A stretch of DNA of 12,110 nucleotides from Candidatus Helarchaeota ASGARD archaeon Hel_GB_B (GTDB lineage: Archaea; Asgardarchaeota; Lokiarchaeia; Helarchaeales; HEL-GB-B), in NCBI GenBank assembly GCA_005191425.1, contig SUPR01000100.1, positions 1-12,110 on the forward strand, written 5' to 3'. Both the position numbers and the translations under genes were made by a program. How positions within the stretch are numbered: the stretch's first letter is position 1; each line of letters opens with the position of its first letter. Shown here in pieces: positions 1 through 12,110 of this stretch. The notes beneath the pieces were generated by a model, which was not told the DNA's origin, did no database searches, and saw only the letters and a list, made by a program, of their open reading frames with translations.

Positions 1-132
1 TTTCCAGATTTGGTGAAAGGAATAATAAAAGAAATGGAAATAGGAAAAAAGATGTTAGGAAGGTCGGTGGGACTTGTGTTAAAAGTAATAGAGAACTGCG
101 GCGGAAAAATAGTGGAAAAAAATAAAAATTAA
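1..132 (+). mobile_element. Partial CDS at the window edge, C-terminus of a repeated ORF (possible transposase, family unrecognised)
   Basis: Frame 1 is open from base 1: FPDLVKGIIKEMEIGKKMLGRSVGLVLKVIENCGGKIVEKNKN*, with TAA at 130-132, then 40 nt to the repeat end. A stop close to the end of a multicopy unit is typical of IS right ends. No DDE or other catalytic motif is visible in this fragment, so the transposase call is inference. Confidence 0.5.
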
Positions 133-172
133 AGATGTTTTATTTTTAAAGCATAGAATTTTGTAAAAAGTC
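1..172 (+). repeat. Left copy of 172-bp inverted repeat (probable 3' end of an IS-like multicopy element)
   Basis: Block-by-block comparison: 1-172 is the reverse complement of 11939-12110, with one mismatch at position 157 (A here, G in the other copy). Identity breaks after ...TTGTAAAAAGTC. Confidence 0.97.
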
Positions 173-190
173 TTAAATAATATATTGAAA

Positions 191-290
191 AATTATAATT
201 ATAATTGACTAATTATGATAGGATTTTTTAAATAGGAATTAAAAAGATTATTTAAGACTTTTTTTAAAAATTATCTATAAAAGAAGTGAT
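191..290 (+). promoter_or_regulatory. Candidate promoter region for the ORF starting at 298
   Basis: TATA-like TTTTTAAAAA (261-270) and CTATAAAA (275-282) lie about 15-35 nt upstream of ATG 298. There is an A/T-only palindrome at 191-206. The AT-rich background makes these weak evidence. Confidence 0.3.
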
Positions 291-297
291 TTGAAAA

Positions 298-435
298 ATG
301 AATGATAATAAGAAGGGAATAGAATTAATCATTTTACGACTTTTAAAAACATTGGGAAAGTCAACTATAGAAGATTTATTTGATAAAATGCCTAATTTAA
401 AAAAAAACAAATTAGGTCAAAATTGGACCAATTAA
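298..435 (+). CDS. 45-aa ORF encoding the N-terminal half of a winged helix-turn-helix domain (0-frame product of the frameshifted gene); not in the supplied ORF track
   Basis: Translation: MNDNKKGIELIILRLLKTLGKSTIEDLFDKMPNLKKNKLGQNWTN*. ILRLLKTLGKSTIEDLFDK matches the helix1-helix2 pattern of wHTH domains. The recognition helix and wing continue in the -1 frame. Confidence 0.75.
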   Translation: MNDNKKGIELIILRLLKTLGKSTIEDLFDKMPNLKKNKLGQNWTN

Positions 436-3377
436 TAGATTTTGGATTAGTTATTAAAAAAAGAGAAAATAATAAGATATATTATAAAAATGCACCGATT
501 TTTGAGGATAAAATCTCAAAAGTTCGTTCTATAGATCCTGGTACCGCAGATGGTAGAGATCTATTTGAGATTACAGATTTATCTGATGTAATTCCAAATA
601 TGCCGCCTATGGAATTAACACAAATGGCTATCTCACCATCTGAGGAGGAGTTTACCCTAGAACAAAGTACTATCGAAGAAAGAGAATCAATTACCCATGA
701 AGCTGGAGCAATCTATGACAATTATATCCCAACTAATTTCGAAGTTAGCCTAGAAAATGCATTTTCATCAGACCTCCCTTGGAAAAAAGAATTAATTGAA
801 ATAGTAAAAGCAAGAGCTTCCAATAATAAAAATAAAATTATTAAATTACTTAAAAAATCAATACAAAAGGCTATTAAAAATAATTTAATAAGTTATCTAC
901 CAGAACTATACAAAAATCTAGCTGAAGAATATTCAAACGATAAATTGGCTGTTAAAAATATATATTTAGAAGCAATAGATTTTTTTAATAAACTGGACGA
1001 TAAAAGATATTCTATAGATTTTTATATCAAATTGGGAGATTTCCAATATAAAACTAAAAATTATGAAGACGCCTTAAAACAATATAAAATAGGGCTGTCG
1101 CTAGTCAATGAGAATGATCTGATCGATTTTATTCATATTTTATTTAATAAAATTGCAATGGTATATAGAGAATTAAATCAATTTGAAAATGCCTTAGAAT
1201 ATTATTTGAAGGACCTGCCAATTAGTGAAAAACAATTTAAACAAGATTTAGGGAAACTTTTGAATAAAATTGGTGGTGTATTAATAAAACTTGGTAGAAA
1301 TTCAGAAGCATTAAACTATTTTGATAGAGCAATTTCGATTTTTAAGGATAACAATGACATAAATAACCAAATAATAAGTCTGATGAATAAAAATGTGGCA
1401 CTTTTTAATTTAAAACAGTGGGATAGTCTAATTGATCTTTATTTGAATGTCTTAGAACTTTTAAAAGACCCCGAAAAAAAAGAGAGAATTTGGCGAGAAC
1501 TAGGAACAATTATCCAACATACCTCCAAAAAGGAATTGATTGATAAATATAAGTCTAAAATTAAAGAACTTAAAATCATAGAATCAGAAGAAGAGTTAGC
1601 AAGAAGAGCAAGAACAATTACAAAAATGGCAGTTTCCTCAGAAATTTCAACTTCAAAAATTACAAAAGCTCTTTGGAGTTTTAATACTGCAGTGTCCGCT
1701 TTTGTTGAAGGAAATTATGAAAAAGCTGAAAAATTATATCTAGAATCTGAAAAATTATATCAAGAACTAGAAGATTTAAAGGGTATAGGGCTATGTAATC
1801 ACCATCTCGGTTTGATTTACCTTCAAAATGATCAAATTGACCAAGCAATATCTAGATTACAATTTGCTACAAATGCTTTTGAAAATATTAAAAAAGAAAT
1901 TTCAATTGAACAATTCCGGACTACTCTCCAATCAGATGTAATTCCAGTCCTTGAAGATTTAACTTATGCATTTATTTTAAAAAATAATAAAATTGATGCT
2001 CTCGATTCCTTAGAACGAGGAAAAAGTCGAGAATTAATTAGAAAAATGGACGGTTTTGATACTATCGATAAATGTCCAAAAATGACAGACCTTATTAGAA
2101 AAGAAAATATTTTGTTGGGATATTTTCAAGAACGTGAAGATGAAATTACTCAATTAAAAAGCGATTATATAAATAATTATATAAATTTTGAATCATATAA
2201 ACAACGAATCAAGAAAATTAATAAAGAAATAAAAGACGCTTCAATTAAACTAAGAGAAATTAGGACAAAAATTTATGAAAATTGCGCAGATCCAGGTAAA
2301 GTTCAACCTTCTTTAAATTATAGTATAGTGAATAAGTCTAGAGATATTATCGGAAAAATGGACATTTTAATTCTTGAATTTTTTTATTATAAACGAATGT
2401 CAAAAATTTTTACAATTGTATTAAACTCTAACCATGATTTAGAATATTATTCTAAACCAGTTAATAATAAAGAACTACTATCTAAAATCGAACAACTTAA
2501 AATGGGAATTGATACTTTAAATGAAGATATTGTCTCAAAATTAGGAAGAGATTTGTTTGAACTGGTTATTCCTACAGAGTTTAGTATGAAATATCTTAAT
2601 ACACCTATAGAGAAACCATTAATTATTATTCCACACCATGAATTGTTTGCTATTCCTTGGGAAATTCTACAGAACCCACATAGTTCAGGAAAATGGGATG
2701 GTTTTCTGGGTCTGGAATGTTTATTAACTCGAAATTTTTCACTTGACTTAACAAGGATAATGTTGCAAAAACACTTAGAGAAAAAAGGAAATGAAATTCT
2801 ATTATTAGGAAATCCTACTAATGATTTAGATGGAGCAATGGAAGAAGTATTAATAATTAATGAGGTAATTGGTCAACATGGAATTAAAACAAATTTATTA
2901 TTAGGAAAAAGTATTACATTGAACTCTTTAAAAAATAATTTACGTTCTAATAAATTTGGAGTGGTCCATTATGCAGGACATGCAGATTTTATGGAATCAG
3001 ACCCATCACTATCAATGCTTATCTTGAATGATGGCCCTATTACAGCAAGAGAATTAGGTTTAATGCATTCTAATAACTCATTATTTTATTTATCGGCTTG
3101 CGAAAGTGGACAAGCATCTAGTATCAGCGGTGGGGAAATTTTTGGCATAATCAGAGGATTAACATTATCCGGAGCTCAAACAATTATAAGCACAAATTGG
3201 AAAGTCGCAGATGATTCTGCTCGAGATCTTGCCATACAATTTTATAAATCTTTGGAAAGTGGATTGAACGCAGCCTATTCTTTAAGAGAAGCAAGAAGAT
3301 TTGTAAAAATTAAATATAAAGAGATTTTACATTGGGCAGCTCCAACGATTTATGGAAATCCAATATTTACTCTTTGA
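298..3377 (+). CDS. wHTH-acidic linker-TPR-coiled coil-CHAT (clan CD caspase-like) protease, split by a -1 frameshift at 399-407; reconstructed length 1026 aa (ORF track gives only 423..3377)
   Basis: TPR-like repeats (e.g. YIKLGDFQYKTKNYEDALKQYKIGL, FNKIAMVYRELNQFENALEYY, LNKIGGVLIKLGRNSEALNYFDRAI). ALDSLERGKSREL motif typical of TPR-CHAT proteins. CHAT motifs LIIIPHHELFAIPWEIL, VHYAGHA (2967-2981), LSACESG (Cys 3099-3101), IISTNWKVADD and WAAPTIYG. The main frame is open back to 396. Confidence 0.9.
396..433 (+). other. Slippery site / homopolymer tract with downstream hairpin
   Basis: T_TTA_AAA (396-402) and A_AAA_AAC (402-408) are in X_XXY_YYZ register with the 298 frame. A9 run at 399-407. 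An 8-bp stem-loop AATT(A)GGTC-aaaattg-GACCAATT lies at 410-433. Confidence 0.6.
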
Positions 3378-3400
3378 CTTTTTTTAACTCTTTTTATTTA
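3378..3400 (+). terminator. Oligo-T archaeal-type terminator after the CHAT gene
   Basis: CTTTTTTTAACTCTTTTTATT follows the TGA at 3375-3377 directly. Confidence 0.45.
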
Positions 3401-3437
3401 AATTATTAGAATTAAATTTAAATATTTAAAAGAAATT

Positions 3438-3872
3438 CTAGAATTTAATCTCATTCTTGTTTTTAAATTCTTTTAAATCTTTTTCTAATAGACCAATTCT
3501 CTCTTTTTCCTTGTTAGCCCTCTCTTTCTCGATTTCTTCTCTTGTCTTATAAATTTCCAAAGTTTTTAGATTTATTAATACTAACCTGTATGTATCTGAC
3601 CCACCTTCATATTTCATTGAAGTTTTCATAATACCTAAATTAAATGGTAATATTAAGCTTGTATCAACGATATTTTTTTTAATTATATCACCATTTTCGT
3701 CAAAAATTATACCTTTTATTGTTTTTATGACATAGTTTTTATCTTCATTATCTATGAAAACTCGAAGAAATGGTGGCTTATATAATGAAACTGAAAAATT
3801 AAGTAAGAGAATATGGAAATACAGAATACAAAAAAATAAAAGTAAAGATAAATGAAAAATACGAAAATGATT
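3438..3872 (-). CDS. Hypothetical protein; frame is open for 144 codons but the first canonical start is ATG 3629 (63 aa), so the start is uncertain or the gene is frameshifted/truncated
   Basis: Upstream of ATG 3629 the same frame reads ...LYKPPFLRVFIDNEDKNYVIKTIKGIIFDENGDIIKKNIVDTSLILPFNLGI- into MKTSMKYEGG..., with no stop until the TAA at 3873-3875. The C-terminus is charged and coiled-coil-like. Confidence 0.5.
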   Translation of the reverse strand, partial: NHFRIFHLSLLLFFCILYFHILLLNFSVSLYKPPFLRVFIDNEDKNYVIKTIKGIIFDENGDIIKKNIVDTSLILPFNLGIMKTSMKYEGGSDTYRLVLINLKTLEIYKTREEIEKERANKEKERIGLLEKDLKEFKNKNEIKF

Positions 3873-3949
3873 TTATTTTTAGAAAATCCAAAGTGAGGAA
3901 TATATCAGATAAACTTATTAAATAAAATTGAAAAATAAGTTTAAAAAAG

Positions 3950-5428
3950 TTAGCGACGTCTACCTTTTTTATGGATTGCCATACCGTGGACATCCTCAGC
4001 GGTTTCTTGGACAATTTCGGAAATTGTTGGGTGTGAGTGTATAGTTTTACTGATATCATGGACTTTTAGACCATTTCTCATAGCAAGAGCCACTTCAGCT
4101 ATTAATTCTGGAGCTTCTGCGCCAATACATGATGCGCCCAGAATTTCATCTGTATTTGCATCTGCAATTATCATCATAAAACCTTCTTCTTCGCCCATAC
4201 ATTTAGCTTTACCAAGGCTAGCGTAGCCAAATCGGCCAACAAATGTTTTAATACCTTTTTCTTTAGCGGCTTTTTCTCGTATACCAACGGAACCGATTTC
4301 AGGACTTGTAAATATTGTAGCAGGGACAACGCTATAATCAGCGACCATTGGATCTACGCCAAAATTTCCAATTGAAGCTAGTGCATTAGCCACAGCCACA
4401 TTTGCTTCGTAATATGCTACATGGGCTAGCATAATACCGCCAGTTACATCCCCTATTGCATAGATACCTTTGCAGTCAGTTTCAAGAGTTTTCAAGTCAA
4501 CGACAATTTGTCCGCGATTGGTTTTTATGCCCATTTTTTCGCAGTTAAGTCCTTGAGATACCCGTTGACGACCTATTGAAACAAGGCAGTAGTCAGCGGT
4601 AAATTCGGTTTTTTCGGCTGAATCGATTTGATCTCTTGGAATATCTGCGGAACATGTTGTAGCCTTTACACCGTTTCCTGTATTTTCTACATTCAATACA
4701 TTTTGACTGACATGTATCTTAATACCCATTGATTCAAACTTTTTTGTGATTTGTCTTATAATCAATTTTTCTTCAGTTGCAATAGGTGTTGGTAAATATT
4801 CCAACATTTCGACTTCAGAACCCATTCTGCGGAAAATATTGCCGAATTCGCAACCAATAACGCCAGCCCCAATTATCAATAATTTTTTAGGTAAAACTTT
4901 AAAGTTGGGGTCTAGGATATCATCACTTGTAAGGATTCTTTCATGATCAATATTAAAAGCAGGGATCATTGCAGGTGCTGACCCAGTAGCGATTATTACT
5001 TTTTTTGATGTTATTTCAGTATTGTCATTGCCTTCAATTTTTATTTTAAAATTCAGATCTTGTCCACCGACAAGTGAGCCAAATCCGTGGAATAAAGAAA
5101 CTTTATTTTGTTTTAAGAGAGACTCAACTCCACTTACAAGTTCTTCTACGACTTTATTTTTTCTTTCTACTGCTTTGGAAAAATTTGGTTTAATATCACT
5201 AACCTCTATTCCAAAACTACTTCCTTTTTCCAATATATCCTCTAATAATTTTGCAGACGCATAAAGTGCTTTAGTAGGGATACATCCGCGGTTAAGACAA
5301 GTCCCACCAACTTTATCTTTTTCAACAAGCGCTACTTTTGCACCATATTGAGCCGAGCGGATAGCTGCATGGTAACCACCAGGCCCTCCGCCTAATATAC
5401 AGATGTCAAATACATCATTTTTGCTCAT
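3950..5428 (-). CDS. lpdA: Dihydrolipoamide dehydrogenase (E3)
   Basis: FAD-binding ILGGGPGGY, redox disulfide GGTCLNRGCIP, NAD-binding IIGAGVIG, YAIGDV, and C-terminal HSHPTISE catalytic His-Glu motif. Confidence 0.96.
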   Translation of the reverse strand: MSKNDVFDICILGGGPGGYHAAIRSAQYGAKVALVEKDKVGGTCLNRGCIPTKALYASAKLLEDILEKGSSFGIEVSDIKPNFSKAVERKNKVVEELVSGVESLLKQNKVSLFHGFGSLVGGQDLNFKIKIEGNDNTEITSKKVIIATGSAPAMIPAFNIDHERILTSDDILDPNFKVLPKKLLIIGAGVIGCEFGNIFRRMGSEVEMLEYLPTPIATEEKLIIRQITKKFESMGIKIHVSQNVLNVENTGNGVKATTCSADIPRDQIDSAEKTEFTADYCLVSIGRQRVSQGLNCEKMGIKTNRGQIVVDLKTLETDCKGIYAIGDVTGGIMLAHVAYYEANVAVANALASIGNFGVDPMVADYSVVPATIFTSPEIGSVGIREKAAKEKGIKTFVGRFGYASLGKAKCMGEEEGFMMIIADANTDEILGASCIGAEAPELIAEVALAMRNGLKVHDISKTIHSHPTISEIVQETAEDVHGMAIHKKGRRR

Positions 5429-5437
5429 TTTTTTTTA

Positions 5438-5442
5438 ACCTC
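5438..5442 (-). promoter_or_regulatory. Shine-Dalgarno-like GAGGT for lpdA
   Basis: The minus strand reads GAGGT-TAAAAAAAA-ATG, a 9-nt spacer to ATG 5428. Confidence 0.6.
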
Positions 5443-5626
5443 ATAAATTTGAATAATTAAAAACTTCGAATATTCATATTTAATTTTTGTTTTAAATAAC
5501 AAGAAATTTATTTTATTCAAATTTAAGAATATTTTTTCGAGTATAATTCCAAAAAATTATATCTAGAAGAGAAAAAAAACGCTATAGTATTGTGACCTTT
5601 TAAAAGACTTTCATTAATTATTACAT

Positions 5627-6259
5627 TTAAACGAATTCATAATATTGGTGTAATATTTTAAACATTTTTTTAAAGGGTAAATCAGAATAAGACCCTCTAT
5701 CATTTACGTATTCTATGAATTTTTCACCATTTATTGTGGTTTTTGGGAGGACAATGTCATTTATACCATCAAATTCTGCAGGTATATAATTATATTTTTT
5801 ACTTAATTCGACATTAAAGGCGGGTGTGGCTTTTATCCATTTTCCATTTAAAAATAATTCAGTATATCCATGGAAAACGAATAGGTTAGTACCCATTATT
5901 TCTTTTAATTTTCCCGAAATTTTGTAGTTTTTGATATCAGCGAAATGTAATTTAGAAGGTATATTTATAGATCTAGCAAGTGCAGCTAAAACGCAAGCCT
6001 TCTGGACACACCAACCTTTACCTGCTTGTATAATTTTAGATGCTTTGTAATTTTTTTGTCGTGAAGAGAAACTTTCGTAAGGATTGTATTTAATCTGGTC
6101 TCGGGTCCAGTAGAAAATTGCTTTGGCTTTTTCAATAATGTCATTTAGATTTTCTGTAATTTTTTTAGATATATTTATAACAACTGGACTATCAGAATCA
6201 ATAAAATAAGTTGGTCTTAAATATTCAGTCATTTTTTCCAAACAATCAACCTCTTCCAC
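5627..6259 (-). CDS. Transglutaminase-like (papain-fold) protein; start may be GTG 6259, TTG 6241 or ATG 6232
   Basis: EKAKAIFYWTRDQIKY, GKGWCVQKACVLAALARSINIPS (catalytic Cys) and FHGYTELFLNGKWIKATPAF (catalytic His). A GAGGT at 6248-6252, inside the end of the upstream gene, fits a TTG 6241 start. Confidence 0.9.
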   Translation of the reverse strand: MEEVDCLEKMTEYLRPTYFIDSDSPVVINISKKITENLNDIIEKAKAIFYWTRDQIKYNPYESFSSRQKNYKASKIIQAGKGWCVQKACVLAALARSINIPSKLHFADIKNYKISGKLKEIMGTNLFVFHGYTELFLNGKWIKATPAFNVELSKKYNYIPAEFDGINDIVLPKTTINGEKFIEYVNDRGSYSDLPFKKMFKILHQYYEFV

Positions 6260-7103
6260 TCAATATTTTGACAATTTCTGGGAATATATAATCAGCTACT
6301 TTTATATTATCACCGCCCATTGAGGTAATCAAATATCGTCCCTTGCATAACTCCATTGCGCATTTATTAACTTTTTTAACCAATTTCAAAAAGAATTCTT
6401 CGGAGAGACCTCTCGAGCCGTAATCATCATAGTGTGTATCATGTCCTAAAACGTGAATAATAATATCTGGTTTAAAATCTTTTACTTTTAAGATAAAATT
6501 TTTTTCGACTTTGTCAAGATATGCATCGTCACTGGTCCGCCACCCAACATCCACACAAAATTTTGTATTTTCATCTTCAGCTAAGTTTTCATCGCAGAAA
6601 CAAACATGTAATACATCGTGATCCCCTAGGAACATATCACGTGTACCATCAGCATGGTGTGAGTCGGTATCAATGATAGCAAAACGGAAATTTTTATCAG
6701 GAAATTTATTTCTTAAATTTTTTATACCAGGGCCAGTAAGTGATGCATAAGTCCCACCCCAAGCTGAAGTTTTCCCAGCATGGTGACCAACAGCTACCAT
6801 AAAATTCAATGCATTGGTAATTTCATTTGTCCAAATTTTTTCTAAGGCACTCATGAACCCACCAATGGTATAAAGCCCACCTTCAGCATACCAAGAAGAT
6901 AAAAACGATTTTACAAGATTTTCTGAATGAACTTGATAAAGTATATCTGGAGGTGCTTTTGGAGACTCATATAAAACAACATTATCAAATTTTAAGACTT
7001 CGCTTAATACTTCTGGAAAGTGTATAAATTTATCACCAATAATTGGCCAGTTAGAACCTTTAAAAATATTATTCCAAAATATTCCAGTTTTTACATTGGC
7101 CAT
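6246..7103 (-). CDS. Histone deacetylase family (HDAC/AcuC/AphA-like) Zn-dependent amidohydrolase, divergent
   Basis: VGHHAG (His-His dyad), IIDTDSHHADGT (Zn ligands D and H), DFKPDIIIHVLGHDTHYDD (third Zn ligand). The terminal motif is SMGGD instead of EGGY. Confidence 0.9.
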   Translation of the reverse strand: MANVKTGIFWNNIFKGSNWPIIGDKFIHFPEVLSEVLKFDNVVLYESPKAPPDILYQVHSENLVKSFLSSWYAEGGLYTIGGFMSALEKIWTNEITNALNFMVAVGHHAGKTSAWGGTYASLTGPGIKNLRNKFPDKNFRFAIIDTDSHHADGTRDMFLGDHDVLHVCFCDENLAEDENTKFCVDVGWRTSDDAYLDKVEKNFILKVKDFKPDIIIHVLGHDTHYDDYGSRGLSEEFFLKLVKKVNKCAMELCKGRYLITSMGGDNIKVADYIFPEIVKILSGRG

Positions 7104-7445
7104 TTTATTTCATTCCATTAAATAATATCTTGAAATCAGAAAATTTTACAAGTTTATACCGAAAATAAATATTAAACTTAAAAATATTAATATTTGGCTA
7201 TTTACATTATTTTTTAATTTTTGAATGATGAGATTTTTCTGAATATCCAGATTTAACCTATTTTTTATTAAAATTATATAATATGTGTTTAAATAGATTT
7301 AAAAATGATTTTGAGTTTTTAGAAAAAAAGTTATAATGCCAAAAGTCTTAAATTTCTTAAATATTTGAGAAAAAAATTCATGAATTATATTAATGTGAAA
7401 TTTTATTAATTTACATTCTAATTTATTAATAAATGGTCTTCAATA

Positions 7446-9101
7446 ATGGATAGAATTAACCAAATTTCTGGGAATAGAATTTATGAATATATGATGGATT
7501 TAATAAAAATTGGTTGGCGTCGGGTTGGGAGTGAGAAATATAAAAAAGCTTGTAATTATATTTTAAAAAAATTTAATGAATTTGGACTTGAAGAGACGAG
7601 ATTTGAGTCTTTTGAAATGTTACTATATACACCATTCAAGTGGCATTTAAAAGTAAATAGTGAATTATTGGGATTAAATAGTATTGAATTTGATTCTTAT
7701 CCTTTATGGCATACCAAATCTACAGATGAAAATGGGATTGAAGCAGAATTAATTTATATTGGATATGGTACCGAAAAAGAATATAATAAGAAGGATATTT
7801 TAAATAAAATTGTCGTTGTGGACTCTATTCGTATGATGTCTTTTTATCCAACGATGGATTTTTGGAGGGTTTATGAAAGGGTAAGAAAAAGTGGTGCAGT
7901 TGGACTAATAGTAATTCATGATTCTCCTCCAAATACATTATTTGTTGAATACGCAACGCGACATCAGACGCTAAAAGATACGAATTTAGAAAGTGGTAAT
8001 ATTCCGGCGCTTATAATAAACTATGAATCGGGCATGTATCTTAAAAAATTAATTAAAATTGGAGGATGTCTCACGGCAAATCTTTTATTAAAATCGGATA
8101 TTAAAACGGTATTAACAGATAATGTAGTAGGAACTTTACCTGGGAAAAAAGAGGACGAAATAATTTTAATTGGGACTCATTTAGACAGTTGGTTTGATGG
8201 TGCTATAGATAATGCAGGTGCAAATGCAGGTATGATCGAAATTGTTGATTATTATAGTCAATTAAAACAGAATGAAAGAGAAAAAACAATGATTTTTGTA
8301 GGATTTGCAGGACATGAAGTTGGTTCAATTGGTGCTATTGAATTTGCAAAAAAGCATAATGAATTGCTCAATAAGGTTTCGACTTTTTGTATGCTTGATG
8401 GATTTGGGTCTAAAGGCTATATGTTGGAAAATCCAAGTAGAGGTGTTATTGAAACAGGATTAGATGAAGCTAAAGGACTTTTTACCACAGAAAATCAAAT
8501 TTTATTTGACTTTATTAAAAGTGCTGTTTTTAAATATAAACTATTTCCATCAATGTATGTTTCAGCAGTTACAGGTCCATTTTCAGACTTGGGTCCATTT
8601 GTATCCAATTATGTACCGAGTATTATGATAATTGGAAAAGGGATTTTTTATCATACTATTGAGGATACTGCAGACAAAATTTTACCGGACCAATTAAGAC
8701 GTGCTGCATGTGCTCACATAGAAATACTTAATAAAATTCACAATACTCCAACTAAATTTATAAAAAATGCTGATCGAAAAGGCATTCCACCAATTGGGGT
8801 TCCTAAAAAGGTTAAAAAAGGCTCAGTTTACGTTAATTTCAATATCACACCAAATCCAATGATAAGAGGTACTACAGCATTAATATACATTACATCATTT
8901 ATTAGTTCAGACCGGATTATTGTAGATTTAAAGTGGAAGATTAATGGAAAAGAAGTCCATTCCCCAATTTTACCCCAAAGATTTGGAAAATCCGGTACTC
9001 ATAAAATCGAATTAATAGTAAAGGATAATTATGGACATGAATATTCTTTTGTCAAATATGCCTATGTCATTAATAAAGTAAATAAAAATTTGAAAAATTG
9101 A
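7446..9101 (+). CDS. M28-family metallopeptidase with PA domain and C-terminal PKD/Ig-like domain
   Basis: PA domain ELIYIGYGTEKEY...ILNKIVVV. M28 motifs IGTHLDS, GAIDNAGA, FAGHEVG, MLDGFG, SDLGPF and YHTIED. The C-terminus (about 8832-9070) has the pattern W.ING...GTHKIELIVKDNYG of PKD-type folds. No signal peptide is evident. Confidence 0.88.
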   Translation: MDRINQISGNRIYEYMMDLIKIGWRRVGSEKYKKACNYILKKFNEFGLEETRFESFEMLLYTPFKWHLKVNSELLGLNSIEFDSYPLWHTKSTDENGIEAELIYIGYGTEKEYNKKDILNKIVVVDSIRMMSFYPTMDFWRVYERVRKSGAVGLIVIHDSPPNTLFVEYATRHQTLKDTNLESGNIPALIINYESGMYLKKLIKIGGCLTANLLLKSDIKTVLTDNVVGTLPGKKEDEIILIGTHLDSWFDGAIDNAGANAGMIEIVDYYSQLKQNEREKTMIFVGFAGHEVGSIGAIEFAKKHNELLNKVSTFCMLDGFGSKGYMLENPSRGVIETGLDEAKGLFTTENQILFDFIKSAVFKYKLFPSMYVSAVTGPFSDLGPFVSNYVPSIMIIGKGIFYHTIEDTADKILPDQLRRAACAHIEILNKIHNTPTKFIKNADRKGIPPIGVPKKVKKGSVYVNFNITPNPMIRGTTALIYITSFISSDRIIVDLKWKINGKEVHSPILPQRFGKSGTHKIELIVKDNYGHEYSFVKYAYVINKVNKNLKN

Positions 9102-9117
9102 TTGAGGAAGTATTTTC

Positions 9118-9645
9118 ATGAATTATAATGATTTTAAAAAAACTGAATTTTATAAATTTTTCAATTTAAACAAGACCAAAACTTCTATAAAAGACGATAT
9201 GACGGAAATTTATTTTAAAACTGGTGGATTTCAAGAATTTATCGATATTATAATTCTGATTAACAAAAATAATGATATTATAGAAGCAAAATTGATAATT
9301 GAACGGGAATGGATAGGAAATATAAAAAATATTAACCCATTTTGTAAGGATATAGTGAAAAGTTTTATTTCTGTATTCACGCCTCTAAATGATAAAAATA
9401 AAATAAATAAAATTATTGAAACAATTTGGAATTTAAAAGGAGAAAATGATTATATCCTGTATATTAAAGGGCCAGAAAAAAAGCAACATAAACTCAATGA
9501 AAAAGAGCAAAAGGTTATTGATGTATATTTAAATCTAATACCTTTCACTGAATTTAAATTAAAATCATCTACTTTTTTATTCAGAAATATTAAAATAAAT
9601 AAATCTGTTAAATTTAATATTATTTGGAAGATTAATAGTAAATAA
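9118..9645 (+). CDS. Hypothetical protein (175 aa)
   Basis: Intact ORF 16 nt after the M28 stop, with GAGG (9104-9107) upstream. No family recognised. Confidence 0.7.
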   Translation: MNYNDFKKTEFYKFFNLNKTKTSIKDDMTEIYFKTGGFQEFIDIIILINKNNDIIEAKLIIEREWIGNIKNINPFCKDIVKSFISVFTPLNDKNKINKIIETIWNLKGENDYILYIKGPEKKQHKLNEKEQKVIDVYLNLIPFTEFKLKSSTFLFRNIKINKSVKFNIIWKINSK

Positions 9646-9649
9646 ATAA

Positions 9650-10447
9650 TTAAATTACCGATTGTTCGATATCGAACCTGAATTCTTTTAATCCTAATTC
9701 TTGCGGAGTAGGTCTGTACAGGTCTTCTCTAGGTAAAATATTCTTAAAAATACTTCTAAACAATCGCCTGCCGAAATATATTATTATTCGTGGCATTTTT
9801 ATGGGATTTTTATTCTTTTTAATTATCGAATAATTTACTATTCTAAATGCTTCAGAAAAAATAGCGTGCGGTGTAAAAATACCATAAAAAAATTTCAAAA
9901 ACCAACTGAAATAGATAAAAAGTGGATTTGCAAAACCTTGAGATACGTGTTTTTTAAAAGCAATAACTCCTTTATTTCTATTTCTTGCTGGGATATAATA
10001 ATTCGGTAAATAAGTATAGTATAATAAATATAAAGGCTTTTTATTTAAATGTTTCCAGACATAATAAACGGTTTTCGCTAAGTTTATATGGTCAATATGT
10101 CGGTCAATTGTATAAAATGGGTCTGGTGCAAAGATGACATCGGGTTTAATTTTTAGGATAAAATTTTTAATAATTTTAATAGATTCTTTATCAAATCTCG
10201 AATATCCATCAATATAACCAATCCAATATAACTTATTTATTCCAACAACTTTTGCAGCTTCCCTCATTTCTCGGCGTCGAATTCTCGATATGCGTTCACC
10301 TTTAAAATCATTTCTATCTGTTCCATACTCATCTGCAGTATAGCAGGCCATTATTACATTATGCCCATTATTTACCAATTCGATTTCTGTACTAACACAA
10401 CTAAATTCAATATCATCCGGATGAGGTGAAAAAAAAAGTACCTTCAT
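9650..10447 (-). CDS. PIG-L/LmbE family N-acetyl-sugar deacetylase
   Basis: N-terminal FSPHPDDIEF (HPDD metal motif), RRREMREAAKVVG, KPDVIFAPDP and HIDH motif. Confidence 0.92.
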   Translation of the reverse strand: MKVLFFSPHPDDIEFSCVSTEIELVNNGHNVIMACYTADEYGTDRNDFKGERISRIRRREMREAAKVVGINKLYWIGYIDGYSRFDKESIKIIKNFILKIKPDVIFAPDPFYTIDRHIDHINLAKTVYYVWKHLNKKPLYLLYYTYLPNYYIPARNRNKGVIAFKKHVSQGFANPLFIYFSWFLKFFYGIFTPHAIFSEAFRIVNYSIIKKNKNPIKMPRIIIYFGRRLFRSIFKNILPREDLYRPTPQELGLKEFRFDIEQSVI

Positions 10448-11199
10448 TAATTTAAAATAATATTATTTTATTTTTAACTTTTACAACCATCTAAATTATT
10501 TATTATTTCGGATTTTTATCGTATTTTGAAGTTTTTTATCAAAATTAATTGTACCATGGATAATTTATTTAACCCACATATTATAAAGAGAGAATTTGTA
10601 ATCAAAAAAATTAGACGAATTAATTAGAACTAAAAAATTGTTATATAAATTGAAAATATCTAAAAAATTGGCTAATTATTTTAAAAAAGAAGAAGATTAA
10701 GAAATTTATTCAGTAGTACAATAGAAATAACAATTTAGTTTGTATATGTGCTTTTATTAAAATTAGATAAAGAAAAAATACAAGATACACTGTCGTTTAA
10801 AAAATTCAAAAGGAAATTAGATTTAATTACAAAGTTTAAAAGAATAAATTGAGATTATTATAAATTGTATGTTATTAATTGAACTTTTTAGGGATTTAAG
10901 AATGTATTTTTTAAAAATTAATATCTAAAACATAGTTTATATATATTAAAATATAATTTAATTGCTCTTTAAAAAATAAATTAAAATATCTTTTTTAAAA
11001 ATAAGGTTTTACTTAAAAAAATTGCAAATAAAAAATTATGTCTTGGCATATAAAACTTTTAAATATAAAGAAAATCTTGCAGGTCAATGAATTTCAGAAA
11101 TATATCTATTATTTTTACCAAATTAAATTTTTGGTGTATCTATGAATGCTAAATCTTAAAAAGTCAATTTGATAATAATTTTGTCAAACATTTATTTAA

Positions 11200-11240
11200 A
11201 AAGGTTTATAAATAAAGTAACTGTACTTTTAAAAGTATTA
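11200..11240 (+). promoter_or_regulatory. Candidate BRE/TATA promoter of tbp with overlapping palindrome
   Basis: Purine-rich AAAGG immediately before TTTATAAA (11205-11212). A perfect palindrome TACTTTTAAAAGTA (11224-11237) lies near the expected start site. Confidence 0.45.
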
Positions 11241-11285
11241 TAACTTTTTTTGAATTAAACAAAATTTAGTTTGTGTGCATAAAAG

Positions 11286-11873
11286 ATGTCCGATATAGAT
11301 AGCTCTGAAGAAGAAATTGACATCAAAAGTCTATATAAAGTAGTAAATATAGTAGCAAGTGTTCAATTTGAAATAGAAGGTCTGATAGACTTAAATTTAA
11401 TAGCATTAAAAAATAAAAATACCGAATACAATCCAGATACATTTCCTGGACTAATTTTGAGGTTGCAAAAGCCAAAAAGTACCGTTTTAGTATTTTCAAC
11501 GGGCAAACTTGTAATTACAGGATTGCGAAAAACAGAAGATGTTAATCCTGTTACATCTCAAGTAATTAAAATCCTTAAAAAAAGTCGAATTAATATTATT
11601 GGAGAACCAAAAATTGTCATTCAAAATATAGTAGCAAGTGGAGATTTACATATAAGTATCAATTTGAATTTAATGAGTATTAGTCTAATGCGAGCGTTAT
11701 ATGAGCCGGAAGTTTTCCCAGGACTTATATATAGGATGGACAACCCAAAAGTAGTGTTTCTAATTTTTGCCAGTGGCAAAATAGTTTGTGTTGGTGCTAA
11801 GTCGGAAGAATTTATTCAAGAAGCAGTAAAAAAATTATTAACTCAAATTCAAGATTTAGAATTTGAAATGTAA
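11286..11873 (+). CDS. tbp: TATA-box binding protein (archaeal TBP)
   Basis: Two direct repeats: VNIVAS...YNPDTFPGLILR...LVFSTGKLVITG and QNIVAS...YEPEVFPGLIYR...LIFASGKIVCVGA. All four DNA-intercalating Phe positions are present. Short acidic N-terminal extension. Confidence 0.98.
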   Translation: MSDIDSSEEEIDIKSLYKVVNIVASVQFEIEGLIDLNLIALKNKNTEYNPDTFPGLILRLQKPKSTVLVFSTGKLVITGLRKTEDVNPVTSQVIKILKKSRINIIGEPKIVIQNIVASGDLHISINLNLMSISLMRALYEPEVFPGLIYRMDNPKVVFLIFASGKIVCVGAKSEEFIQEAVKKLLTQIQDLEFEM

Positions 11874-11892
11874 TTTTATTTCAAATTTTTTG
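11874..11892 (+). terminator. T-rich putative terminator after tbp
   Basis: TTTTATTTCAAATTTTTT follows the TAA. Confidence 0.35.
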
Positions 11893-11938
11893 AATTAATT
11901 TAATTTAATTCATTTAATTTACATTTTTTATTATTAAT

Positions 11939-12110
11939 GACTTTTTACAAAATCCTATGCTTTAAAAATAAAACATCTTTAATTTTTATTTTTTTCCACT
12001 ATTTTTCCGCCGCAGTTCTCTATTACTTTTAACACAAGTCCCACCGACCTTCCTAACATCTTTTTTCCTATTTCCATTTCTTTTATTATTCCTTTCACCA
12101 AATCTGGAAA
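11939..12110 (-). repeat. Right copy of 172-bp inverted repeat
   Basis: Reverse complement equals 1-172 except one base (GCATAGGATT vs GCATAGAATT), which lies in the non-coding tail. Confidence 0.97.
11979..12110 (-). mobile_element. Partial CDS at the window edge, second copy of the repeated ORF C-terminus (possible transposase)
   Basis: Identical 43-codon open frame plus stop on the minus strand, running off the window end. Confidence 0.5.

Follow-up and report, generated by a model that had tools for sequence, protein, structure and literature searches.

Inverted ends of an Asgard archaeal contig probably mark two separate insertions of a multicopy, defective IS6-like element

Elements of the IS6/IS26 family produce 8-bp target duplications and have short terminal inverted repeats (Harmer and Hall 2019, PMC6807381; Varani et al. 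2021, PMC7986276), and IS6-type elements are known to build composite transposons (He et al. 2015, PMC4471558). IS26-bounded structures can also arise by intramolecular replicative transposition, and in the "in trans" pathway of this kind the 8-bp target comes to lie once beside each copy, inverted and with no direct duplication (PMC4471558). Short-read de Bruijn assemblies, for their part, break in multicopy repeats longer than k. The locus considered here is the whole of contig C3 (12,110 bp, the full stretch of DNA that was analysed, hereafter the window) of a 182-contig MAG (G000; k = 77 assembly) from an Asgard-type archaeon, and it breaks at both ends inside inverted copies of one multicopy insertion sequence (IS). 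It resembles the IS26-bounded structures in having two inverted copies around a ~12 kb chromosomal segment, and it differs in nothing from a repeat-induced contig break, for which such ends are standard behavior.

Positions 1–172 are the reverse complement of positions 12,110–11,939 with a single mismatch at 157 (A vs. G), an identity that an earlier note had described and that end reading and an alignment of 11 copies confirm. The same note had both copies starting within an open reading frame at the window edges with their 3′ ends towards the intervening DNA; indeed, both arms encode the same ORF end, the last 43 codons and the stop, at 1–132 (+) and 12,110–11,979 (−). A repeat search of the window gave slightly longer arms (1–182 and 11,929–12,110, 98% identity), but end reading and the 11-copy alignment show that the element actually ends at 172 and 11,939 (...GTAAAAAGTC|); bases 173–182 of the arms match only partly, which is AT-rich chance. 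The near-perfect match over 172 bases is itself far beyond chance and exists because the same element has 11 right termini in the genome.

Neighboring contig ends in the MAG overlap by exactly 77 bases, the 77-mer in the right end of the element being common to four contig ends and that in its left end to five, and the first 77 bases of C3 recur exactly at three other contig ends. The same two break places are found in at least six independent assemblies. Because both junctions are reproduced by independent MEGAHIT, JGI, and NCBI contigs and the left one is bridged by Logan contigs in two of the four runs examined, they are real rather than assembler artefacts, and the geometry claimed in the earlier note holds. 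Among the loose ends listed for the Logan contigs of these four runs there was no empty-site form at the left junction. With reads shorter than this multicopy element, the assembler could pass through neither copy, and the result is a contig with inverted identical ends.

The element is a defective, non-autonomous, IS6-like IS of ~1.4–1.5 kb with 11 right and 13 left termini in the MAG. Its terminal inverted repeats are imperfect (left, GGGTTTATTCATTTTCCTATGCT; right end, ...AGCATAGGATTTTGTAAAAAGTC), the left end agreeing with the reverse-complemented right end at 15 of 23 terminal bases. Direct repeats of 8 bp bracket it at four sites, three elsewhere in the MAG (C93, AAAAATAA; C119, TGTCCAAT; the C110/C140 pair, TTCAGTAA) and one at the left copy of C3 (TTAAATAA). 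The left end of the element carries a TnpB 3′ fragment; mobility of the TnpB/IS200-IS605 type was considered and rejected on the strength of the 8-bp duplications and of the lack of a conserved target motif beside either end. An exact-pattern scan of genome contigs with the right end returned no match outside its own genome. With copy interiors extended beyond C3 by three public contigs (L068, L071, and L096), the left and right copies appear to be ~6% diverged (~64 mismatches over ~1140 bases and a 29-base indel), a figure that compares contigs of different samples and may include chimeric assembler paths inside repeats, of which L095 may be one.

Assignment to a family depends largely on a relative. 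The remnant at 1–132 (+), recognized from its translation as the C-terminal end of a transposase, matches the end of a 150-aa remnant ORF in the C19 copy at 98% identity; that ORF in turn aligns with the C-terminal portion of an IS6-like transposase of 445 aa (L054). This full-length relative passes the Pfam profile DDE_Tnp_IS240 (PF13610; 32.3 bits, cutoff 27), is a DDE transposase with the order DE(T)...TD...N-x-E, and is bounded by repeats similar to the terminal repeats of our element. In contrast to the family, it has an N-terminal zinc ribbon and a lysine-rich insert, and it scores only 29 bits against NCBIfam IS6, far below the cutoff of 125. The remnant found no match in Pfam or NCBIfam, and its own assignment to IS6 is weak. 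Further differences lie in length (~0.8 kb for IS26 vs. ~1.4 kb for the copies here) and in content, as the copies here hold only a transposase remnant together with the TnpB 3′ fragment. Neither the left nor the right copy has an open transposase frame, both retaining stop-interrupted C-terminal remnants only; since no more than the C-terminal remnant is carried, the element must be moved in trans.

The left copy (1–172, +), delimited by the 11-copy alignment and an empty site in a conspecific, is represented by the last 172 bases, or right end, of a ~1.4 kb element within which the contig starts, and it is followed by its inner target-site duplication, TTAAATAA (173–180, +), an 8-mer that is found again outside the copy and at the empty site. 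Three other assemblies (L095, L096, and L098) contain the outer junction, ...TTAAATAA|GGGTTTATTC, and TTAAATAA on both sides gives the left copy a target duplication of its own; this outer junction was read in near-identical strains (99.7–99.9%), G000 having no contig that carries it. From one ENA sample the left copy can be pieced together out of two halves that share an exact 46-base overlap, for a length of ~1423 bp. The insertion falls within the 215-bp spacer that separates an ABC-2 permease gene from a CHAT gene, 125 bases upstream of the latter (the TPR-CHAT gene described below). A conspecific metagenome contig from JGI (Ga0366834_1002266), 99.2% identical to the window over 11.9 kb, has the order PadR-ABC-ABC2-CHAT with no IS between the ABC-2 permease gene and CHAT, and its empty site shows TTAAATAA just once. 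Absent from this conspecific strain, the left copy is hence polymorphic. Because the strains differ by ~0.8%, a search for exact matches to the ABC proteins of the JGI strain retrieved Ga0366834_1002266 alone.

The right copy (11,939–12,110, −), identified by repeat search, end reading, and copy alignment, is likewise the last 172 bases of the element, with the contig ending inside it, and it is found after the TATA-binding protein (TBP) gene in every assembly seen. Its inner flank, TTATTAAT (11,931–11,938, +; ATTAATAA in element orientation), is presumably one half of a target duplication, and the right copy would thus have a duplication of its own. Among public contigs, L059 lengthens it by 325 bases and L068 carries it to 1187 bases, L059 being the one contig retrieved by a metagenome scan with the element and adding to the right copy only. 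The partner, outer junction was not found among the MAG and public contigs examined, and none of the left-end contigs of the MAG carries ATTAATAA. The earlier note had proposed a search for target duplications; this succeeded for the left copy, with its TTAAATAA pair, and not for the right. Contig C38 holds orthologues of the congener genes downstream of TBP and ends within an SDR gene, with no IS sequence, and the JGI 278-kb contig and five others break off within or close to the gene of a 548-aa membrane protein rather than at an IS.

The DNA between the copies is housekeeping DNA. It opens with the gene for a TPR-CHAT (caspase-like) protein (298–3377, +; Pfam CHAT 1.6e-40, plus TPR), which a 1-base deletion in the window splits into frames of 45 aa (298–435) and 984 aa (423–3377) and which is a single 1026-aa frame in the JGI strain. 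A 63-aa ORF of no family (3438–3629, −), taken from the ORF list and called identically in nine public contigs, is followed by a dihydrolipoamide-dehydrogenase-like flavoprotein disulfide reductase (3950–5428, −; Pyr_redox_2 4.5e-63, Pyr_redox_dim 6e-34) whose congener orthologue is 84% identical, a transglutaminase-like protein (5627–6259, −; Transglut_core 1.7e-16), and a hydrolase of the histone-deacetylase family (6246–7103, −; Hist_deacetyl 2.1e-23). Beyond these lie an M28 peptidase with a PA domain (7446–9101, +; Peptidase_M28 8.8e-22), a 175-aa ORF of no family (9118–9645, +; no Pfam match), a PIG-L family deacetylase (9650–10,447, −; PIG-L 2.4e-24), and TBP (11,286–11,873, +; Pfam TBP 6.8e-57), detected nowhere else in the MAG (a single tblastn match in the genome). 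Scans for Rfam families and tRNA genes returned nothing in the window.

In a congener (G001) the genes run PadR-ABC-ABC2-CHAT-lpdA-TGase-HDAC-M28-LRR-PIG-L-TBP-M24-SDR-SDR-BKACE-ACAD, and no IS matches were obtained in the interval from PadR to the acyl-CoA dehydrogenase gene (ACAD). Gene order and orientation between the copies agree with both this congener and the IS-free conspecific allele, so that the synteny comparison suggested in the earlier note finds the segment collinear with its outer flank in each; judged by gene order, the segment is an old, conserved chromosomal neighborhood.

We therefore favor, with a probability of about 0.9, two independent insertions and assembly breaks, and not a mobile unit. 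This is the mundane explanation that the earlier note had itself offered, and the evidence favors it; of that note's interpretation, the two real inverted copies bracketing the segment stand and the cargo as a mobile unit does not. We propose that an ordinary piece of chromosome received, at separate times, two oppositely oriented non-autonomous IS6-like copies, one on either side. The right copy would have been inserted first and the left copy, probably the younger, later, by a copy-in mechanism of the IS6 type, with the copies mobilized in trans.

The closest rival accepts two independent insertions and adds homologous recombination that flips the 11.8 kb in part of the population. The copies do supply inverted homology over ~1.4 kb, their inner ends agreeing at 171 of 172 bases, and short-read contigs would look alike in either orientation. 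The flipped form was not observed among the contigs, whose junctions are alike in both orientations, and the apparent overall identity of ~94% would lower recombination. In the one sample mentioned above, moreover, the 46-base overlap that unites the ABC2-side half of the left copy with its CHAT-side half carries left-copy-specific variants, which fits the ancestral orientation, and a programmed switch is further disfavored by the window itself, no ORF of which has a recombinase domain in Pfam. We consider such flipping distinctly improbable; that the segment is inversion-prone is plausible but unsupported. A bolder proposal is that in some members of the natural population homologous recombination flips the TBP-bearing 11.8-kb segment and that, separately, the element is a chimeric non-autonomous transposon not described before, which an IS6-like transposase moves and whose left end is made up of the C-terminus of TnpB and its 3′ RNA-scaffold region; taken jointly, these two claims are unlikely.

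Much less probable is a one-step intramolecular replicative transposition "in trans" of the IS26 type, whereby a single resident copy attacked a nearby target and was thereby duplicated in inverted orientation, with the DNA between flipped. The geometry of inverted copies with like ends inward would fit, as would an IS6-like element with 8-bp duplications; however, the shared inverted 8-bp repeats of IS26-bounded structures are not seen here, the left copy instead carrying TTAAATAA as a direct repeat on both sides, the segment is not inverted relative to the congener or the IS-free allele, and the copies appear ~6% diverged rather than identical. Least credible of all is a composite transposon, in which both inverted copies and the 11.8 kb arrived as one unit able to move again: a segment bracketed by inverted copies of an IS6-like element recalls the units that such elements build, but the strain without the left copy has the cargo in the same place beside the ABC-2 gene, the cargo is collinear with the IS-free congener, the direct 8-bp duplication belongs to the left copy and not to the whole unit, no matching or reverse-complement pair was found among the outer 8-mers, both copies lack a transposase, and the only detected TBP gene is in the cargo, and this proposal of the earlier note is refuted by two of the three criteria set beforehand (outer-flank synteny and the left copy's own duplication).

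In a MAG, identical contig ends in inverted orientation are thus an assembly signature of a multicopy IS and not evidence of a mobile unit. The result is an ordinary one of little general biological consequence. What it adds is the record of an IS insertion, recent and polymorphic, that lies upstream of a TPR-CHAT protease gene in an Asgard archaeon of the Helarchaeales type, and the defined ends, 8-bp duplication, and copy list could help to scaffold the genome and to annotate Asgard transposable elements. Were the chimeric-transposon reading true, transposition of the element would scatter right-end fragments of TnpB across an Asgard genome.

The two ends of the window are inverted copies of one multicopy, IS6-like insertion sequence (IS), whose right ends face the enclosed genes. 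A repeat finder matched window 1-182 with 11929-12110 at 98% identity; when both ends were read and 11 genome copies aligned, the common element proved to terminate in ...GTAAAAAGTC at window 172 and 11939, the partial agreement over the ten bases past 172 arising because both flanks are AT-rich. The earlier note's description of a 172-bp inverted identity with one mismatch is thus accurate to the base (the mismatch lies at position 157), and its observation that both copies begin mid-ORF with 3' ends towards the cargo is confirmed, each arm carrying 43 codons and a stop in the same frame, directed inwards.

The window is a complete contig (C3) of a metagenome-assembled genome (MAG; 3.54 Mb, 182 contigs, 93.7% completeness) in which contig ends overlap by exactly 77 bases. 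Its first 77 bases recur at its own other end, at the end of contig C134 and at the start of C140, and a 77-mer from the opposite end of the element is common to five further contig starts. With 11 right and 13 left element termini in the MAG, the inverted identical ends therefore mark where assembly at k=77 halted inside a multicopy repeat. In public data, at least six independent assemblies of this organism are interrupted at these two positions (contigs of 11952-12540 bases), and the runs bearing the sequence are hydrothermal-vent and marine-sediment metagenomes. Exact 77-mers also link two more groups of four contig ends (C63, C105, C116 and C152; C26, C33, C87 and C114). These are other multicopy IS subfamilies fragmenting the MAG, and the first group encodes a more remote member of the element's transposase family, again as a C-terminal remnant (38-42% identity).

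The insertion site of the left copy (window 1-172) is free of the IS in the JGI contig Ga0366834_1002266 (38.6 kb), which matches window 157-12052 at 99.2% and continues past the CHAT side, without the IS, into ABC-2 permease, ABC ATPase and PadR genes and then DNA matching the end of contig C121. Its sequence across the insertion point is ...GTAATTAT TTAAATAA TATTATTG..., with a single 8-mer. In strains with the left copy (public contigs L095, L096 and L098) the outer junction is ...GTAATTAT TTAAATAA|GGGTTTATTC, and the inner junction in the window is ...AAAAAGTC|TTAAATAA; since the same 8-mer stands at both, the left copy is a simple insertion that has a target duplication of its own and lies 125 bases upstream of the ATG of the CHAT gene. 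It is polymorphic, and the right copy (window 11939-12110) is present in every strain seen. In L095 (GCA_054387055.1, JBQSIZ010000031.1) the ABC2 flank and element left end are joined to an interior and right flank 98.6% identical to C13:1-1079, which reflects either chimeric assembly within the repeat or genuine recombination of two copies. A 1-base deletion near 400, just ahead of an A-run, divides the TPR-CHAT gene into frames at 298-435 (45 aa, winged-helix-like) and 423-3377 (984 aa). ENA and NCBI contigs from strains with the IS have the gene called as the same two frames, and in the JGI strain, which lacks the left IS, it is a single uninterrupted frame of 1026 aa; frameshift and insertion are therefore found together in one lineage.

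The neighbourhood is conserved in a congener genome (G001), where one contig runs PadR-ABC-ABC2-CHAT-lpdA-transglutaminase-HDAC-M28 and a second, joined to it by an exact 46-base overlap within an LRR gene, runs PIG-L-TBP-M24-SDR-SDR-BKACE-ACAD; no match to the element was found on either. The 838 bases upstream of TBP (window 10448-11285; GC 16-23%) have no listed ORF of at least 60 aa and gave neither an Rfam family nor a tRNA; in the congener a frame of 127 aa occupies the equivalent position. The junction on the outer side of the right copy was not located: ATTAATAA is absent from all left-end contigs of the MAG, contig C38, which holds orthologues of the congener's downstream genes, terminates inside an SDR gene, and in other assemblies (at least five; L084:1-1648 and the starts of L103 and L105-L107) the equivalent contigs break off within or close to a gene for a 548-aa multi-pass membrane protein upstream of the M24 peptidase gene, which suggests a repeated or hypervariable gene at this site. 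Of the two window copies, target duplication is thus established for the left only, and synteny of the cargo with its outer flank holds in both relatives, the JGI strain and the congener. The mundane alternative in the earlier note, a contig broken at two insertions of a multicopy element, is borne out by the empty site, the left copy's own duplication, the synteny and the 77-base end overlaps, and we consider it very likely (probability about 0.9) that two independent insertions of a defective IS6-like element in a conserved neighbourhood are being seen through a repeat-broken assembly.

Inversion of the segment by homologous recombination between the copies is unlikely. Recombination within the element would leave both inner junctions unchanged, so contigs are blind to orientation, and orientation is not readable from the Logan contigs, which bridge the left junction in two of four runs. 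Against flipping, in one sample a 46-base overlap carrying left-copy-specific variants joins the ABC2-side half to the CHAT-side half, lending weak support to the ancestral orientation there. It is highly improbable that a one-step IS26-type event produced both copies: intramolecular replicative transposition in trans yields inverted copies with flanking 8-mers common to both in inverted configuration (He et al., PMC4471558), whereas here the duplication around the left copy is direct and the region is collinear with relatives. The composite transposon proposed earlier, with both copies and the cargo moving as a unit, is scarcely credible, being contradicted by the IS-free conspecific site that holds cargo and ABC-2 flank, the left copy's own 8-bp duplication, the element-free collinearity of the congener, a housekeeping cargo with the sole TBP gene that tblastn detects in the MAG, and divergence of the copies (~64 mismatches over ~1140 aligned bases plus a 29-base indel, between contigs from different samples, where repeats can assemble chimerically) that speaks against a fresh duplication of either copy from its partner.

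Both insertions involve a degenerate element. It begins GGGTTTATTCATTTTCCTATGCT and ends ...AGCATAGGATTTTGTAAAAAGTC, with imperfect terminal inverted repeats (15 of 23 terminal positions match). In public contigs the right copy reaches 1187 bases (L068), and the left copy is covered for 873 bases at its left end (L096) and 596 at its right (L071), halves from the same sample that overlap by 46 exact bases to give ~1423 bp. Neither copy has an open transposase frame, only a stop-interrupted C-terminal remnant, and the left 110 bases belong to a TnpB gene on the opposite strand, covering its C-terminus and 3' region. In two MITE-like derivatives of ~300 bases these 110 bases are fused to the right 150, between perfect 8-bp direct repeats (C93:42929-43229, L017, AAAAATAA; C119:486-770, L018, TGTCCAAT); contigs C110 and C140 likewise share the 8-mer TTCAGTAA. 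The copy at C9:51913-53013 (L041) retains 273 aa of TnpB after the left end (NCBIfam guided_TnpB, 3.7e-41) and, on the same strand, an N-terminal portion of an IS6-like transposase (weak NCBIfam IS6 match, E 2e-4), a combination hinting at a past insertion of a TnpB element into the ancestral transposase gene. A diverged copy at C19:15374-16890 (L014:1075-2591), without target duplication, has 186 aa of an ISH3-family transposase (NCBIfam 9.2e-13) lying between its left end and a 150-aa remnant ORF, and at C99:35400-36540 (L042), which terminates in the element's left-end sequence, a TnpB fragment adjoins a frame that by eye resembles an IS607-type serine recombinase with an N-terminal HTH.

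The C-terminal remnant aligns with the last third of a 445-aa protein from a genome of the same order (L054), which shows DE(T), TD and N-x-E motifs, with a zinc ribbon at its N-terminus and an insert rich in lysine separating the second D from the E; it passes Pfam DDE_Tnp_IS240 (32.3 bits, cutoff 27) and reaches only 29 bits against the NCBIfam IS6 model (cutoff 125). The protein is the IS6-like transposase of an IS that looks complete, is ~1.48 kb long and is bounded by imperfect terminal repeats of 22 bases (L054:1393-2873; G003:C114). We read the element as a probable chimera, non-autonomous and derived from a distant IS6-like insertion sequence, that a DDE transposase would move in trans, a reading that the 8-bp duplications fit; TnpA-type mobility is argued against by the absence of a conserved target motif. 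The general phenomenon is well known, and within its family this element appears to be undescribed.
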